This document shows, piece after piece, positions 3,063 through 53,768 of a DNA stretch of 64,000 nt. The position numbers and the translations under genes are program-made. The stretch's first letter is position 1. The number at the start of each line of letters is the position of its first letter. Under the pieces are notes generated by a model. It was not told where the DNA came from and made no database searches. It saw nothing but the letters and a program-made list of their open reading frames with translations. The DNA comes from a virus, in IMG/VR virus record IMGVR_UViG_3300042465_004839, positions 9,170 through 73,169 of that record. One strand, written 5' to 3'.

Positions 3063-3580
3063 TATGATTTATTTTTTTTAATTATTTGTTTTAGTTTACT
3101 GATATATTTCTCATCCTGTGCATAGATACTTGATAGTAGTTTAAAGTACTCAGCATCGGTTGTAATGAATAGGGCATTTTGTATCTGGAATGCTTTATAG
3201 TCAAGGATACAATCTTCTACTGACTCATACTTTGCATAAGCTCCATAGTCGTGGCTGTTGATAGCAAAGGTAAATCTTTGCGCTGCGACTCGCATACCAA
3301 AGCAATTCAAATTGTTTTTAAACACTTGTGACTTAAAGTTACTGCTTTCTAATATTGCCTGTGCCATTACAATGTGGCTAAACTTTATTTTGTGCTTTTC
3401 AATACTTGACTTAAAACAATCAATGTCTATTTTGTTTTCAAGGCAGTTGGCAATAGATAATTCCTTTTCAAGTGTAGTCACTTTCTTATTAGGTAGCAGT
3501 TGAATTACTGCTACACCTGTTACTGCACCAATAATAAATATTATTAGTACTATGGCTATATCTCTTTTAAATTCTTTCAT
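3062..3580 (-). CDS. glucosaminidase (GH73-like peptidoglycan hydrolase) with N-terminal transmembrane anchor
   Basis: AQAILES, NCFGMR and YAQDxxY motifs; hydrophobic residues ~8-29. Confidence 0.85.
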   Translation of the reverse strand: MKEFKRDIAIVLIIFIIGAVTGVAVIQLLPNKKVTTLEKELSIANCLENKIDIDCFKSSIEKHKIKFSHIVMAQAILESSNFKSQVFKNNLNCFGMRVAAQRFTFAINSHDYGAYAKYESVEDCILDYKAFQIQNALFITTDAEYFKLLSSIYAQDEKYISKLKQIIKKNKS

Positions 3581-4161
3581 GTGTTTTTATTTATAGTAGC
3601 AAAATTATTAAAGTCACTATTGCTGATTACATCTCCATAAAAATCAATTTCATTTACTTCCTCATTTACCAAAGCAAAGTCTAATAAAGCTCCGAGTACA
3701 TGGCTATCTTTATCTAATACAGTAAAGTCAGATGTGTCTTCAGCCCATTCTACTGCACTATTAAATCTAAATGATGTAAAGCCATCGTATGAAGTGTATC
3801 TTTCTTTTAAATAGGTATCAAAAGCATCGTAATTACTTTGTATGTACTTTGCAATGTTACTTACTACAGGAATAACATCTACGTCTACTGCATCATTAGT
3901 GTAGTTATAGTACTTAGGGGATACAATTTTTTGATATTTCATTGACTCAATTAGTCCTAATTCAATTAGTTTAATTTCAATTTCATCAGTTAACAAATCA
4001 GCTATTTGTTCATTGTAACCTTTCCAGTCTACTTCCACGTCATCTAAATCATCTACTTCATTGTACTCACGATATTCATCTAATTCACTATCTCCATCCC
4101 ATATTGTATTGTAAAAGCCATTGAATAATGGTAACCACGTTTCTATTGTTTTATTTTCCAT
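3577..4161 (-). CDS. acidic hypothetical phage protein
   Basis: 194 aa, D/E-rich, FNGFYNT and SPKYYNY motifs; ACACA leader. Confidence 0.7.
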   Translation of the reverse strand: MENKTIETWLPLFNGFYNTIWDGDSELDEYREYNEVDDLDDVEVDWKGYNEQIADLLTDEIEIKLIELGLIESMKYQKIVSPKYYNYTNDAVDVDVIPVVSNIAKYIQSNYDAFDTYLKERYTSYDGFTSFRFNSAVEWAEDTSDFTVLDKDSHVLGALLDFALVNEEVNEIDFYGDVISNSDFNNFATINKNT

Positions 4162-4177
4162 AATTTTTATTGTGTTT

Positions 4178-4417
4178 TTAAATTGTTTGGTATTGTATGT
4201 TTAAAGGATTAATTAACTTGCCATCCATCACGATTTCAACTACTGTATACGTTTCTTTTGGGGAAATTCGTAGCATCTTGCTGATACTTTCAGCAGCTTT
4301 GATCCTTTCATTCTGATGGAATTCTAATATTTTAATAATTGTTCTTCTTAACTGTGGCGTTAGTTTTGTTACCCTGTTGTTTAGCTCTGTGGCTATTTGT
4401 CCATTAGTTAAATTCAT
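4178..4417 (-). CDS. HTH-like hypothetical protein
   Basis: AAESISKMLRISPKETYTVV. Confidence 0.5.
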   Translation of the reverse strand: MNLTNGQIATELNNRVTKLTPQLRRTIIKILEFHQNERIKAAESISKMLRISPKETYTVVEIVMDGKLINPLNIQYQTI

Positions 4418-10823: not shown

Positions 10824-10983
10824 TATGTTTATATTTTCTTTAGGCAAAGGTAGTATAAAACCGTATTAAAACAAAACTCTAATAAAATCACTCCTTACTT
10901 TGTCTAAACTCGGTAAATACGAAGACAGGCTAAATAGTATCAAAACACTTGTAAAACTCGAACCGACCGCATATATTTGCAGT

Positions 10984-13027: not shown

Positions 13028-13101
13028 TGTCGGGAGCAAGGAATTGAACCTCATTTTCTACCTCTCGTAGGTAGTGTAATTGCCATTATACGACATCCCA
13101 A
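13028..13101 (-). tRNA. degenerate tRNA (apparent anticodon CGA, non-canonical loop)
   Basis: TTGGGA/TCCCGA acceptor, TAATGG D-loop, CTACC/GGTAG anticodon stem with TACGAGA loop (A at position 33), GGTTCAATTCC T-arm; short variable loop is atypical for Ser. Confidence 0.55.
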
Positions 13102-13688: not shown

Positions 13689-13946
13689 GATTTTTGATAT
13701 TTCATTTCACAAAAGTATCAATATAATTTACAATTACTAATTAAATTATATTAATCTTTATAATAATATATTTTTATAATCTATACCTCGCCAAATGTAC
13801 CTAAAAAAACATAGTTTTGGCGAGTTATGTTCTATATATTAGATGTCAGTTTAAAACTGATACCCTTACTAAAATACCTAAATATACATTTTAAGTACTC
13901 ATTTTGTGTAATATCATACAAATACGGTACTTAAAATGTGATTTTT

Positions 13947-15933: not shown

Positions 15934-16128
15934 TTATTTAAACCCAAATAAATTTTTAATATTGTCTAATACATCATCTTCAAAAATATTAGATTTAGTA
16001 ATGTCTTCTACACTAATATAGTTTAGTCTGTCATTTACTTGTTTCTTGGCATCTTCTATATTATAAGCTCTAACCTTAGTACTCATCTTTCTACCGTAGA
16101 ATTCAAAACGTAGTATGTAATCTTTCAT
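15934..16128 (-). CDS. hypothetical protein
   Basis: ATG 4 nt after TACTTTTG (16140-16133). Confidence 0.7.
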   Translation of the reverse strand: MKDYILRFEFYGRKMSTKVRAYNIEDAKKQVNDRLNYISVEDITKSNIFEDDVLDNIKNLFGFK

Positions 16129-16279
16129 ATTGCAAAAGTAGTGATGTTTAGCTAAATAACTAATTAAATTAATTTAATCGAATTATATTCTTGGGTACTA
16201 TACCTTTGTTAGATAATATTTTAGCTAAAATTAATATTAAAAGAGTAAATAGCTAAAATGTTAGATTAAAAAAATATAA

Positions 16280-16420
16280 TTTGTTTTATTGAATGTAGTT
16301 ATTATATTTGCAGCGTACTAATTGGTATTATTGAAGTAGAGAGCAGTAATACCTATTAACTAGGATTAATTAAACAATTAATCAAGCCCTGAACAATTCT
16401 CTACTTGTTTGGGGCTTTTA
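16280..16420 (+). promoter_or_regulatory. Bacteroidota promoter plus structured leader/attenuator of the replication operon
   Basis: TTTG (16280) -19 nt- TATATTTG (16303); two hairpins then a terminator (16384-16420). Confidence 0.7.
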
Positions 16421-16426
16421 TTTTAT

Positions 16427-16888
16427 ATGAAAAACTTTGATAGTTTTAAAAACGCAATTTCGGTATACCTAAAGTTTAACGATAGATATTGCCTTCAATA
16501 TTTAGAGCCAATAGGTCATAAAAAAATTTCTATTATTTTATCTTTAATTAGAAAAGACAATGAAATTACACAGGAACAATATTATACAGTATGTTCAATG
16601 TATAGTCATTTCTATAGTAATTATTTTAAAATAAAAAATTTAAATAGTTTAGAACCAAGAAAAATTGCACAGCAGTTTATTAGTAGAAAAAAAATAAGAC
16701 ATTTTATTTTTAAAAGAGATGGTTTTAAGTGCTTAAAGTGTGGTTCTGAAAATAAATTACAGATTGACCATATATTACCAATAGCAAAAAAAGGAGAAAA
16801 TAAAATATCAAATTTACAAACACTTTGTATTTTTTGTAACAGTAAAAAAAGAGATAATTATAAAGACTATAGAAATGGCGGAAAATAA
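16427..16888 (+). CDS. HNH endonuclease
   Basis: RDGFKCLKCG...IDHILP...N..SNLQTLCIFCNSKK. Confidence 0.9.
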   Translation: MKNFDSFKNAISVYLKFNDRYCLQYLEPIGHKKISIILSLIRKDNEITQEQYYTVCSMYSHFYSNYFKIKNLNSLEPRKIAQQFISRKKIRHFIFKRDGFKCLKCGSENKLQIDHILPIAKKGENKISNLQTLCIFCNSKKRDNYKDYRNGGK

Positions 16889-18925: not shown

Positions 18926-19121
18926 AAACAAACAAAAACATGGAAAAAAAAGAATTATTATTAGAAATTGAGTGTAAGTATGGGTTCTATACCTGCGCAA
19001 ACAAAGTTGAATCATTTTGTGAAACTTGTAATGAAGGAGATAATTATGAAGACAATGGGGAATAAAATGAATTTTTTTGATGGTTTATTTTATTATGTGG
19101 ACAAATTTATTATATTTGCAT

Positions 19122-19577
19122 ATGGAAAAAATATTAGAACAATATGATAACAAATATTCAGTTACAACTGAAGGAAAAGTTTTTAGTTTAAAAGGAAACA
19201 AAAAAGAATTATTAGGGAAAATATGTAAATCAGGTTATAGACAAATTCTTATTAACCACAAAGGAATTAGAAAGTATTTTTTAGTTCATAGATTAATATT
19301 ATCATCTTTTGTTCTTAATCCTTTTAATAAAAGAACAGTTAATCATAAAGATGGAAATAAATTAAATAATAATGTATCTAATTTAGAATGGAATACAGAT
19401 TCTGAAAATCAAATTCACGCTATTGAAAAAAAACTTATTATACATAAAATTGATTACGAAATTGCTGAAAAAATAAGAAATGATGTAGGAAGTCATAGAG
19501 AATTAGCAATAAAATACAAATTAGGTAAAACACAAATTGGATATATTAAACAAAATAAAAGATGGAAAATAAAATAA
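19122..19577 (+). CDS. HNH homing endonuclease (NUMOD4/HNH_3-type)
   Basis: VHRLI...VNHKDGNKLNNNVSNLEW; ATG 3 nt after TATATTTG. Confidence 0.9.
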   Translation: MEKILEQYDNKYSVTTEGKVFSLKGNKKELLGKICKSGYRQILINHKGIRKYFLVHRLILSSFVLNPFNKRTVNHKDGNKLNNNVSNLEWNTDSENQIHAIEKKLIIHKIDYEIAEKIRNDVGSHRELAIKYKLGKTQIGYIKQNKRWKIK

Positions 19578-21948: not shown

Positions 21949-22137
21949 ATGATAGTAACCATACACCAGCAAGGAAACTACGAAACAAGTGATGGCTACG
22001 AACTAATTATAAAAGATATTTGGTACGGATCATCACCAAGAGTAGAGTTTGTAGTAAAAGGAAAACTATTCTCAAGGACTCGTGAACAGTTTGAACAGGC
22101 TATCAGAGAAGGAAAAGTAATAAAACTGATAAATTAA
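21949..22137 (+). CDS. hypothetical protein
   Basis: AATTATG start. Confidence 0.6.
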   Translation: MIVTIHQQGNYETSDGYELIIKDIWYGSSPRVEFVVKGKLFSRTREQFEQAIREGKVIKLIN

Positions 22138-22200
22138 AAAAATTTAATTAGTTACTGTCCAACCAATTTTTAACTTTGTGAAATCAAAACAAACATAATT

Positions 22201-22872
22201 ATGAATAAATACATCACATACTTCAGAGTAAGTACAAAAGAGCAAGGACAGAGTGGCTTAGGATTAGCTGCCCAAGAACAAATGGTTCTACCCATCACCA
22301 ACAACGGAATAGTAGTGGCATCATTTACAGAAGTAGAGTCAGGAAACAAGTCTAACCGTAAAGAGTTAGAAAAGGCTATCAATACCTGTAAACAACATAA
22401 CGCCATACTCCTCGTAGCAAAACTTGATAGACTATCTCGTAACGTACACTTCATTAGTACACTTATGGAAAGTAAAGTACAGTTCAAGTGTGCCGATGCC
22501 CCAGAGATGGACTCATTCACCGTACACATATTCTCAGCTCTCGCAGAAAGAGAACGTAAAATGATTTCCGACAGAACCAAAGGCGCACTACAAAGCATCA
22601 AAAGAATCATTGACAGAGATGGTGAGTACACCACTAAAGCAGGTAGAGTAATATCTACTCTCGGTAACGGTCTACTACAAAACAAAGAAACTGCCAAAAA
22701 ACAAATGGCGTACGTTGCATCCCACAGAGTATACCAAAAAAAGTCTAACATAGGTCTTGCCCTCGTACAGTCACTATCACAAAATGGTGTTCCCAAGAAA
22801 GATATTAAACAAAAACTTGCCGATAACGGTATTAACGTGTCACTACAAACAATATATAAATATGCAAAATAA
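22201..22872 (+). CDS. small serine recombinase (resolvase/invertase family)
   Basis: YFRVST catalytic Ser, EVESG, LLVAKLDRLSR, ER..ISDRTK, C-terminal HTH; own TAACTTTG promoter at 22171. Confidence 0.92.
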   Translation: MNKYITYFRVSTKEQGQSGLGLAAQEQMVLPITNNGIVVASFTEVESGNKSNRKELEKAINTCKQHNAILLVAKLDRLSRNVHFISTLMESKVQFKCADAPEMDSFTVHIFSALAERERKMISDRTKGALQSIKRIIDRDGEYTTKAGRVISTLGNGLLQNKETAKKQMAYVASHRVYQKKSNIGLALVQSLSQNGVPKKDIKQKLADNGINVSLQTIYKYAK

Positions 22873-23053: not shown

Positions 23054-23536
23054 ATGAGCAAACAAACAGCAAAATATATAATACCGCACATGACATTATC
23101 CATTGATGGTAGTTTATATAACCACAAAACAAAAAAATTTAAAAAGTGGACAAAAGATACTAATGGTTATATGAAAACACAAATTTGGGTTGGCGGAAAA
23201 CCAAAAAACGTACATCAACATAGATTACTTGCTCAAGAATTTATTAATAACTCAAAAAATAAAAAGCAAGTAAATCATATTAATGGTATTAAGCATGATA
23301 ATAGAATAGAAAATCTTGAATGGGTTACTCAATCTGAAAATGGGTTACATTCATTTGCTAATGGATTGCAAAAAGTTACAAAACCTTGTAAAAAAGTAAT
23401 TGATACTAGTAATAATAAAATTTATGATAGTGTAACAGAAGCAGCTAAACATAATGGAATATCAAGAAGTCATTTATCTAATATGCTTACAGGTAAATTT
23501 AATAATAAAACAACACTTAAATTATATGGAAAATAA
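23054..23536 (+). CDS. HNH homing endonuclease with C-terminal NUMOD1-like HTH
   Basis: HRLLAQEFI...VNHINGIKHDNRIENLEW; YDSVTEAAKHNGIS. Confidence 0.9.
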   Translation: MSKQTAKYIIPHMTLSIDGSLYNHKTKKFKKWTKDTNGYMKTQIWVGGKPKNVHQHRLLAQEFINNSKNKKQVNHINGIKHDNRIENLEWVTQSENGLHSFANGLQKVTKPCKKVIDTSNNKIYDSVTEAAKHNGISRSHLSNMLTGKFNNKTTLKLYGK

Positions 23537-23972: not shown

Positions 23973-24343
23973 AAGTAGAAGTATTCAAAGACATCCTTAG
24001 CAGGATAAGAAAGGCAGACGCAGTTGTTAACGTGCTGTACCCAATGGTAGATTTAACTAATGTAACGGACGATTATGTTAGCGTCATAGAGATGATGATG
24101 AAGTGTTATTACGGAGAAGACGCAGCAGAATGGATTTCTTCTTACCTATACGATTTGAGAAACCATGATAATGCGTGGGCTTGGGATAAGGATGGTAAGG
24201 CTATATTAAACAATGAGGATGAGTTGTGGGCTTATTGCGAAGAACTGAAAATGAGCAAAAAGGATTATGAGCCAGCAGCTCCAATGACAGACGAACAGAG
24301 GGCAGAACTAATGGAGGAGATGAAGAAAGCATTTTTAAATTAA
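23969..24343 (+). CDS. hypothetical protein
   Basis: ORF overlapping upstream stop. Confidence 0.7.
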   Translation: MKVEVFKDILSRIRKADAVVNVLYPMVDLTNVTDDYVSVIEMMMKCYYGEDAAEWISSYLYDLRNHDNAWAWDKDGKAILNNEDELWAYCEELKMSKKDYEPAAPMTDEQRAELMEEMKKAFLN

Positions 24344-24442
24344 AAATATTTAATTAGGAAATTAATTTAGAATACCTAATTTTGCTCTTGTGTTTAGGAA
24401 ATAGTTCTCATAATGCTATTCCTGATTAATTTGTTTTGTAAT

Positions 24443-24475
24443 AAAATCCTTCAATTAATTTTGAGGGATTTTTTT
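24443..24475 (+). terminator. intrinsic terminator
   Basis: AAAATCCTTCAA ... TTGAGGGATTTT plus T-run. Confidence 0.7.
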
Positions 24476-24491
24476 ATTTGAAATAAAGTAT

Positions 24492-24890
24492 TATATTTGC
24501 CCTGTTATAATGCGTGCGGCATAATAAAGATATTGAAAAATTCTCGTACACTTAGAGAAAATTTCAACTAAGCCTGATAGCCGCACGCTGTTGGGTTTTT
24601 TTATGCCCAAAAATTAAGGTAATAATGGTCGGCACGAAAAAATGACAGCATTATTATTTAAAGCGATACTGTGAGGTATGTATAAATCGCAATCCCAGCT
24701 ATAAAAGTAAAGGGAATACATTGGAGAATGGACACTTCAAAAGTTGTACTTAAATTTGCAAACCCCATTTGTTTGTGATGCACCAAAGAGGGTTGCGGCT
24801 CGGGAAAATAGTCGTAATTTGAATAGTGAGTAGCCAAAGAGTTTAACACCTCTAAGGCTACCGCTATGCACATGGTAAGGATTGCTCTCA
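24492..24890 (+). ncRNA. promoter-driven structured non-coding element (attenuator-like leader plus hairpin string)
   Basis: TATATTTG at 24492; terminator 24570-24602; at least six further hairpins to ~24861; no convincing ORF. Confidence 0.55.
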
Positions 24891-24971
24891 AAAAAATAGT
24901 TAGTTATAGTATAGTTTAAGTTAAAAAAAATTAATTAGAATCCTTTTAAACAATACTTTACCTTTGAACTT

Positions 24972-25154
24972 ATGGAAAACATAGAAGAATTAAAAAGAAC
25001 AGCATTAGAAGTAGCTTTAAGAAGCAGAGAGTTTACTCAATTAGCACTGGAAACAAAAGATGCAATAGAAGAAGCAGACTCATTAGAAACTCTAAAAACT
25101 TGGTTTAAAGGTACGGTAAACGAATTAGGATTAGACAAATATTTTGGATTTTAG
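24972..25154 (+). CDS. hypothetical protein
   Basis: ATG 5 nt after TACCTTTG. Confidence 0.65.
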   Translation: MENIEELKRTALEVALRSREFTQLALETKDAIEEADSLETLKTWFKGTVNELGLDKYFGF

Positions 25155-25228
25155 GTTAACTAATTAACTAATATTAATGAATATTGAATCTAATATGTTA
25201 TATTTGCAAATAAATTATATTTAATATT

Positions 25229-25843
25229 ATGGCTATACCATTAATTATACCGATAGTAGGAGCAGCAATGCAAGGTTTGGGTATGTTGGACTCTTATCAA
25301 AAAGCACAGGCACTTAGAGGCAAGGCTTCACAATTAGCAAATCAACCACTTCCAGAGATAACTCCAACAGAGCAAACTAATGAGCAATTTAGAATGGCAA
25401 CTGCTGGGGTAGCTAATCCACAAGGATATAGTGGAGCAGAAACTTCTAAATTTCAAAACAGAATGGCACAAATACTTGCTACACAACAATATAATGCTCA
25501 AAATATGGGCGGTGGAGGTAGAGCAATTGGGGCAATTGGTAATGCTAATGCTTTTAATGCAAATGCTGACTTTGCTGCTTCTGATGCAAATTTAAATAGA
25601 AGTCAAAAAAATATGGCTCAAAGCAGATTAGGTAGAGTAGTAGAGGATATTCAAAGAATGAAAAATCAACAAACTGCTTACTTACAAAATAGAAGACAGC
25701 AAACTGAACAAGCATTAGGAGCAGGTATAAGAAGTCAAGAAGATTACTTAAAAGGCACATTAATGAATATGGGTTCAGATATGCTATCGGCAGGATTGTA
25801 TCCTAAATTAGGAACTACAACTACAACTACAACAAAATTATAA
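25229..25843 (+). CDS. putative internal virion / DNA pilot (ejection) protein
   Basis: Hydrophobic Gly/Ala N-terminus, Q/A/N-rich, no Cys; own TATATTTG promoter near 25199. Confidence 0.65.
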   Translation: MAIPLIIPIVGAAMQGLGMLDSYQKAQALRGKASQLANQPLPEITPTEQTNEQFRMATAGVANPQGYSGAETSKFQNRMAQILATQQYNAQNMGGGGRAIGAIGNANAFNANADFAASDANLNRSQKNMAQSRLGRVVEDIQRMKNQQTAYLQNRRQQTEQALGAGIRSQEDYLKGTLMNMGSDMLSAGLYPKLGTTTTTTTKL

Positions 25844-37140: not shown

Positions 37141-37187
37141 GCTCACCATGCCTCTCAACGATGCACACTTTGGTGGGCTTTTTTTTT
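37141..37187 (+). terminator. intrinsic terminator of the ferritin cassette (large structured loop)
   Basis: GCTCACCA...TGGTGGGC followed by T9. Confidence 0.7.
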
Positions 37188-53753: not shown

Positions 53754-53768
53754 GGTACAAATATAATA

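Follow-up and report, generated by a model that had tools for sequence, protein, structure and literature searches.

A promoter-proximal RNA unit with complementary hairpin tips in a Flavobacterium-type phage, and units of the same build in other phages

Genomic setting of the unit

The DNA analysed here, referred to as the window, is a stretch of 64,000 nucleotides that corresponds to bases 9170–73169 of a virus record whose 73,169 bases are rated as a complete genome. The sequencing runs listed as containing window sequence are DNA runs of lake-water metagenomes, with no RNA run among them. Among the matches listed, which are contigs of four DNA runs, no variant was seen within either of the two RNA units described below, beginning at 24492 and 16303, and related contigs from DNA runs cease to match at 24322–24337, the end of the gene upstream of the 24492 unit. 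The nearest cultured relatives of the helicase-like protein encoded in the window are Flavobacterium phages (34–37% identity), and 79 of the 80 records with relatives of this protein are named as Flavobacterium phage, the other being an unclassified Caudoviricetes.

The 24492 unit occupies part of a region of about 630 bases, between the end of a 124-aa gene and a 60-aa ORF, that is devoid of plus-strand ORFs of at least 40 aa. The features of this region, and others of the window referred to below, are as follows.

13029–13101 (−): tRNA-Ser gene (anticodon CGA)
16303–16424 (+): companion unit of the same build as the 24492 unit
16427–16888, 19077–19577 and 23054–23536 (+): HNH endonuclease genes, three within 7 kb
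22201–22872 (+): serine recombinase or invertase-like gene
24343: end of the 124-aa gene
24377–24478 (+): small promoter-to-terminator unit
24492–24602 (+): the unit analysed here
24603–24971: about 370 bases lacking a credible ORF
24658–24891 (−): ORF with no credible family match
24972: start of the 60-aa ORF

The next ORF thus begins about 370 bases beyond the 24492 unit, and the only frame in its immediate 3′ vicinity is one of four codons. The segment 24603–24971 has a raised G+C content, carries a further promoter motif at 24751, and gives no Rfam match. No promoter motif was found on the opposite strand between 23590 and 25594.

Directly 5′ of the 24492 unit lies the small promoter-to-terminator unit at 24377–24478 (+), which consists of a promoter motif at 24377, a hairpin, and a terminator at 24443–24472. 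Its sequence is kept in three related records (L222, L223 and L249; 88% mean column identity) with compensatory changes in the terminator stem, and it is a candidate conserved small RNA that has no loop-loop complement of the kissing type. A pattern search for it returned three viral loci and four metagenome loci. Of the metagenome loci, two match by chance and the other two duplicate relatives already known. We also note an AT-rich palindromic motif about 20–25 nt upstream of some promoter motifs, found in the window at about 16160–16180, 22130–22150, 24344–24365 and 24925–24940, on the minus strand at 13730–13750 and 16150–16175, and in relatives at L222 484–500 and L223 1848–1864, where it precedes the conserved small RNA. 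This palindrome may serve as an operator, or else as an upstream element of promoters that belong to one temporal class.

At least 11 genes of the window genome have their ATG 3–5 nt after a promoter −7 motif, which suggests that leaderless or near-leaderless mRNAs are the norm in this phage; examples of such ATG-proximal motifs are those at 10972, 19111, 36616, 41358, 43122, 57871 and 58080 (+) and at 53765, 16140 and 13717 (−). Against this background, the structured units of about 100 nt at 24492 and 16303 are exceptions.

Structure of the 24492–24602 unit

The original prediction proposed a promoter, two hairpins, a terminator and a T-run between 24492 and 24602, and all five are found where it placed them. 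Together with the two pairing arms, they are listed below.

24492–24499 (+): promoter −7 type motif TAnnTTTG, predicted by motif match
24510–24522 (+): hairpin 1, a 4-bp stem with a 5-nt loop, which carries the first pairing arm and is present in the minimum free energy (MFE) fold of the leader only
24512–24520 (+): pairing arm L1, nine bases comprising the loop and two stem bases on each side
24533–24567 (+): hairpin 2, a spacer hairpin of 6 + 5 pairs, present in both of the folds described below
24570–24598 (+): intrinsic terminator hairpin, a 12-bp stem including four G-U pairs, with a 5-nt loop (−13.2 kcal/mol)
24580–24588 (+): pairing arm L3, the terminator loop and two stem bases on each side
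24596–24602 (+): terminator T-run

The motif TAnnTTTG is what we take to be the Bacteroidota sigma-A −7 consensus; the 16303 unit also shows a matching −33 element with the usual spacing, whereas none is clear here. The terminator was picked up by terminator scans and has the stem-loop and T-run of an intrinsic terminator, and since four of its 12 pairs are G-U it folds only in plus-strand RNA. L1 is perfectly complementary to L3 over all nine bases, and the duplex has a predicted energy of −18.5 kcal/mol; by the exact match, L3 begins at 24580, one base before the start in a reading of 24581–24589. Each loop holds only five bases, so that the full 9-bp contact requires the opening of two pairs in each stem; four of the nine bases of L3 accordingly sit in terminator pairs.

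A 4-codon frame (ATG, three codons and a stop) at 24510–24524 (+) exactly spans hairpin 1, and start-stop pairs are also seen in the first loop of some other units. A leader peptide was considered as a general mechanism and rejected, as the frame is not consistent across units.

The proposal that the loop-loop complement extends to nine bases withstands comparison with chance: in dinucleotide-preserving shuffles of the leader, a complement of this length arose in none of 2000 and in one of 5000. The 9-mer has no other occurrence in the window when up to one mismatch is allowed, and the whole unit folds with a z of −4.45, none of 200 shuffles folding as well. Other convincing terminators of the window genome (at 1862, 43827 on both strands, 50840 and 57785) have only 4–6 complementary bases.

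In the nested MFE fold of the unit, the nine bases form a long-range helix in place of the terminator. For a transcript that ends at the terminator stem, the fold with the long-range capture helix has an energy of −29.1 kcal/mol and that with the terminator −27.0 kcal/mol, and the terminator and loop-capture folds are therefore nearly equal in predicted energy.

A companion unit at 16303 and its family

The original prediction also pointed to an element of the same build at 16303, and this is indeed present, with a 9-base complement between its own L1 and L3.

16303–16310 (+): promoter motif
16324–16353 (+): hairpin 1, with a 10-nt loop
16334–16342 (+): L1, the 9-base complement of L3
16364–16383 (+): hairpin 2
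16384–16417 (+): terminator, followed by a T-run
16398–16406 (+): L3

The 16303 unit folds with a z of −4.46, and its 9-base complement was reached in 14 of 2000 and 38 of 5000 shuffles. The gene that follows, encoding an HNH endonuclease, has its ATG at 16427; several kissing units of relatives are likewise followed by endonuclease-like ORFs. That the 24492 and 16303 units share no sequence, as had been stated, is nearly right, except that their terminator arms look alike in an alignment, and these two terminators could conceivably be of common descent.

Although the 16303 unit has no nucleotide-level match in the phage collection, it belongs to a family that extends across distant phages. 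A homologue in L131/L207 shares 79% nucleotide identity and an identical loop pair with it, whereas the helicase-like protein of L131/L207 is only 28–29% identical to that of the window and nothing else aligns at the DNA level. A third member, in L206, differs from those of the window and L207 by one compensatory change of an L1:L3 pair. Furthermore, about 51 loci of another phage group share with the 16303 unit both the 10-nt first loop and the loop of the spacer hairpin; these at first looked like chance matches and on inspection proved to be a real family, which sits between a repressor-like gene and a gene for a Rha-type (antirepressor-like) regulator.

Closer relatives show replacement of the loop letters. 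In L182/L183 and L184, whose helicase-like proteins are 86–90% identical to that of the window, a unit lies at the place of the 16303 unit, before a DUF6291 gene, and three different loop pairs are thus found at one place in the window, L182/L183 and L184. The units of L182/L183 and L184 are homologous to each other, and of their eight L1:L3 pairs three adjacent ones are changed on both sides, as is one pair of hairpin 1; the observed pairing score was reached by seven of 500 shuffles. A unit of this type is not obligatory before the replication genes, since none is present there in G001.

In the large family of the other phage group (L085 2184–2310 and about 50 similar loci, including L086, L088 and L091), the terminator is approximately the full reverse complement of hairpin 1, with a 13-base tip complement and the same stem letters. 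A 22-pair long-range helix (MFE about −46 kcal/mol) would therefore compete with the two hairpins in this family.

Syntenic counterparts of the 24492 unit

The 24492 unit itself has no nucleotide-level match in the phage collection. An exact search of IMG/VR for its two 9-mers with a gap of 50–70 bases returned 83 loci, none of which is a homologue; they are unrelated, G+C-rich sequences, and in none do a promoter and a terminator occur together. The pairing in the 24492 unit thus rests on statistics and on analogy with the units described here.

Its syntenic place can be recognised in other phages through the 496-aa protein encoded downstream. A single-protein search with this protein found no relatives, and an alignment-based search recovered four records, L221 and L222 (74% identical), L223 (51%) and L249 (42%), the last being a contig of a Bacteroidia MAG. 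The order of features is shared by L221/L222, L223 and L249: a 124-aa gene, a palindrome-preceded promoter, the conserved small RNA, a kissing-type unit, and the 496-aa gene. The units at this place have the same build as the 24492 unit and other, matching loop letters, with 10 complementary bases in L222 (terminator 722–754), 10 in L249 (terminator 1796–1826) and seven in L223 (terminator about 2095–2126). The letters of L1 and L3 are therefore not conserved at the syntenic place. The L249 unit, like that at 24492, has no adjacent long ORF, and the DNA 3′ of the 24492 unit (24599–24975) shows no real similarity to the equivalent region of L249.

The units of L222 and L249 are homologous, with 85% column identity, and of their seven L1:L3 pairs two adjacent ones are changed on both sides; 100% of the positions remain paired, as compared with 24–65% in slid controls. 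Together with the double changes between L182/L183 and L184, these substitutions reflect selection for the L1:L3 pairing in the related units.

A class of promoter-proximal terminators with complementary tips

The wider occurrence of such units was surveyed in five genomes (the window genome, three relatives and one distant genome), which contain 37 compact strong terminators. Seven of the 37 have a promoter motif 50–140 nt upstream, and in five of these seven an ATG occurs no more than 12 nt downstream. Each of the five has a 7–10-base complement between the terminator tip and a site 45–58 nt upstream; in the remaining two cases the terminator is that of the adjacent conserved small RNA. Among the compact terminators that lack a promoter motif, only two of 30 reach at least seven complementary bases.

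The survey was confined to compact strong hairpins because an unfiltered scan is noisy. Across 198 terminator-like hairpins, complements of at least seven bases were found in 49, against 47 and 46 in controls, which is no enrichment, and complements of at least eight in 26, against 13 and 17, a weak enrichment. A further set of 215 compact terminators was drawn from other viral loci, about 1.48 Mb in all, and here no complement of eight bases arose in the reversed-sequence control. In shuffles of the individual leaders, the observed complement length was reached in between one and 1535 of 5000; the weak units by this measure are G002 24155 (949 of 5000), G004 6006 (1535 of 5000) and G002 64271 (249 of 5000), and several units were located by looking for the complement itself, so that these figures carry a selection bias.

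The distance from promoter motif to terminator is 74–82 nt in most units. Further kissing units were located at G002 64271–64320 and in L208 from 3056, and the cultured Flavobacterium phage FL-1 has two, at positions 3761–3801 and 18975–19022 of its record; no unit was found in the 10.8 kb examined of a second cultured relative (V156). An ATG lies 4–12 bases after the T-run in eight units other than that at 24492, and a gene directly follows the T-run of the companion unit (ATG at 16427), L222, L223, L182–L184, G002 64271–64320 and FL-1 3761–3801. The term leader, as used in the original prediction, suits those eight units and is uncertain for the 24492 unit, with no ORF for about 370 bases beyond it. 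The genes downstream of the units encode HNH endonucleases, a helix-turn-helix protein or a DUF6291 protein, or are small ORFs, or are lacking altogether.

The nested MFE fold retains the terminator in 13 of 14 units, the exception being that at 24492 (L085 was left out of this energy comparison), and few or no L3 bases fall outside the loop in most units.

The suggestion that a structure-defined class of RNAs is present is thus borne out by the five of five survey terminators, by the syntenic units with other letters, and by the double compensatory changes. We refer to this class as kissing-loop terminator leaders and define it by the pairing of the tip of the first hairpin (L1) with the tip of the terminator (L3). 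The 24492 unit shares the tip complementarity (9 of 9 bases) with the class and departs from it in having no gene right after the T-run.

Comparison with known RNAs

Neither unit has a match at gathering thresholds in Rfam 15, which presumably includes the guanidine-IV family, and in a search of 24300–25250 and 16100–16500 with E values up to 10 all matches were far below threshold. The sole Rfam match at gathering threshold is the abiF RNA motif at 37142–37178 (+), with 39.9 bits against a threshold of 37 and an E value of 0.0009. It coincides with a terminator-like hairpin after a 162-aa gene; the match may be a borderline one, or the phage may carry a copy of this defence-associated RNA. 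The literature covered on terminator-loop kissing, pseudoknots and phage leaders contains, in the parts consulted, no description of units of the present kind, and the kissing-loop terminator leaders appear from their sequences to be an uncatalogued class.

The closest studied device is the guanidine-IV riboswitch (mepA motif), for which the accounts cited propose a kissing loop with the terminator hairpin that leads to read-through (PMC11611296, PMC7736828). As in the 24492 unit, the loop of an upstream hairpin is, in these accounts, proposed to kiss the loop region of the terminator hairpin. The riboswitch, however, has conserved guanidine-binding loop nucleotides, whereas the letters of the kissing units vary from unit to unit and covary; the kissing units have a long linker with a spacer hairpin; and guanidine-IV genes are exporters, whereas the neighbours of the kissing units are phage genes. 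With no Rfam match and no guanidine exporter among their neighbours, the two units of the window do not appear to belong to the guanidine-IV family.

Phages provide several other points of comparison. The c4 RNA of P1 and P7 is a leader-derived immunity RNA whose covarying specificity letters distinguish related phages. The CI RNA of P4 is likewise made from a leader and, as outlined in PMC4825925, pairs with two sites of its own transcript to bring about termination. Complementarity within the same transcript is common to these RNAs and the 24492 unit (L1 with L3), but the P4 and P1 RNAs are processed out, and trans action on linear targets has been demonstrated for them, whereas in the 24492 unit both partners are hairpin tips of a single unit of about 100 nt and one of them is the terminator. 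The PR′–6S RNA–tR′ arrangement of lambdoid phages precedes a block of genes and consists of a strong promoter with an intrinsic terminator close behind it; transcription yields a short RNA except when Q makes the polymerase terminator-resistant. The kissing units resemble it in having a promoter and then a close terminator at the head of a gene block; the lambda unit differs in relying on a DNA-bound protein and in requiring no tertiary contact within the RNA.

Fully paired loops of 6–8 nt are the recognition step in the antisense systems ColE1 RNA I/RNA II and R1 CopA/CopT, in pT181 attenuation, and in the ColIb-P9 repZ pseudoknot. Such antisense kissing systems control the expression of replication genes, and in pT181 the outcome is termination in the leader. 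Their partners are transcribed from opposite strands, whereas those of the 24492 unit are on one strand and in one transcript. The phi29-type packaging RNA uses intermolecular loop-loop pairing in the packaging motor; the 24492 unit has instead its own terminator and a regulatory intergenic place, and with no Rfam match it does not appear to be a member of that family.

Interpretation and alternatives

We consider the segment 24492–24602 to be a real RNA unit of a Flavobacterium-type phage, strand-specific and promoter-proximal, that would act in cis as a transcription gate, a reading we place ahead of the others while holding it at slightly less than even confidence. The unit belongs to an uncatalogued phage RNA family that probably gates or times gene expression. 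The L1:L3 pairing is well supported through the covariation seen in related units, and from the arrangement of the parts we infer an active promoter at the motif, termination at the unit, and the sign and size of the effect that pairing would have.

In such a gate, L1 would be made about 60 nt before L3, and would be already folded and exposed as L3 leaves the polymerase. It would capture L3 while the 3′ arm of the terminator has yet to be transcribed, and this capture would compete with, or otherwise control, closure of the terminator stem. The outcome would be the share of polymerases from the strong promoter (as predicted) that read into the downstream DNA; a terminated transcript would be an RNA of about 95–100 nt. 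Because the capture helix (nine pairs, eight of them G-C) is similar to the terminator in energy, the 24492 unit should act as a two-state switch. Across the class, the terminator persists in the best fold for 13 of 14 units and L3 is located mostly in the loop, which implies that pairing need not block termination, and by these folding models it could equally well reinforce it. A gate with no adjacent gene is odd, and this aspect of the 24492 unit fits an RNA product with a function of its own.

Ranked second, after the cis gate, is a possible if somewhat doubtful alternative in which the unit is a trans-acting, self-addressed regulatory RNA that serves as an immunity determinant or a timer: the terminated RNA of about 100 nt would accumulate, and its L3 or L1 would bind the complementary loop on transcripts still being made from that promoter, whether in the same phage or in a co-infecting one, and so decide their termination. 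If so, the loop pair would be an address code and should differ between units and between close relatives, and the matched loop letters are indeed replaced among the window, L182/L183 and L184. It would also accommodate the identical loop pair in phages whose helicase-like proteins share only 28–29% identity, the same 10-nt loop in about 51 loci between repressor-like and Rha-type regulator genes, and the intactness of the unit in the window and in L249 despite the lack of an adjoining gene; the P4 CI RNA, as the cited account describes it, provides a precedent (PMC4825925). However, the cis partner is always closer, and the two loops of a free RNA could pair with one another; the locus has neither a processing site nor a sign of lysogeny control, and the 9-mer has no other target in the window. 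We think it unlikely that the unit is instead a stand-alone small RNA, with a loop-loop contact that only shapes or stabilises the molecule and a function elsewhere, for instance in binding a host target, acting as a decoy for a protein or protecting a 5′ end. Its own promoter motif and terminator, the lack of an adjacent ORF in the window, the conserved small promoter-terminator unit in the same 630-base non-coding region, and the coexistence of hairpin 1 and terminator in the best fold of most units would all agree with this, but the ATG located 4–12 bases after the T-run in eight other units marks the position of a leader rather than of a free-standing gene, there is no conserved single-stranded seed beyond L1 and L3, and the letters of these two vary at the syntenic place.

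An improbable explanation is that the unit is a constant stop close to the promoter, which an antitermination factor of the phage or the host would open, with the kissing fold serving as a recognition shape or as reinforcement of the terminator; this corresponds to the common phage factor of the original prediction. It draws on the consensus-like promoter with a terminator immediately after it ahead of gene blocks, and on the presence of two units in one genome, one at the head of the replication block and one before a block of very large genes. Against this, no candidate factor was seen, Pfam and PHROG scans of 26 neighbour proteins naming no Q-like or N-like protein, and the downstream genes are heterogeneous (HNH endonucleases, helix-turn-helix, DUF6291 or none). 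The two units of the genome differ in their loop letters, so that a reader would have to recognise shape only, and to judge from these letters a sequence-specific reader of the loops is argued against. Least probable by far is that the inverted repeat acts at the level of DNA, as a recombination or protein-binding site, or is a by-product of chance or mutation. A 9-base inverted repeat is a DNA feature in itself, and a serine recombinase or invertase-like gene is present in the window, yet the arms coincide exactly with the tips of two hairpins in the RNA, and one of these hairpins is a strand-specific terminator with G-U pairs; inversion between the arms would leave both hairpins as before, and the letters vary between units of one genome, unlike the sites of one protein. 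Chance is excluded by the leader shuffles, the five-genome survey and the compensatory changes (L222/L249 and L182/L183/L184).

The cis gate remains our preferred reading, and if pairing controls termination the units would be a ligand-free relative of kissing-loop riboswitches and a natural set of mutually orthogonal transcription gates, useful for synthetic biology in Bacteroidota. The timing of gene expression in Bacteroidota phages is barely known, and here a simple, recurrent RNA device is found in front of genes for replication, regulators and homing endonucleases; what defines it is a pairing that has been retained in evolution while the letters changed. More speculatively, and with low confidence, we suggest that the units form a family of orthogonal RNA switches, self-addressed through loop pairs that would work as address codes, in which the terminated RNA would feed back only on nascent transcripts with matching loops. 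On this view, RNA timers or immunity determinants would be specific to the operon and to the phage strain, and diversifying selection on the code would explain the differing matched pairs of close relatives at one locus, as well as the identical unit in distant phages and the survival of units with no adjacent gene.

The two units of the cultured phage FL-1, which infects Flavobacterium sp. B183, make the class amenable to testing at the bench. We note that the first of these lies within a 1-kb gap after the terminase gene (record positions 3137–4201; L248), in which at least four units of promoter motif and terminator stand in a row, one of them of the kissing type.
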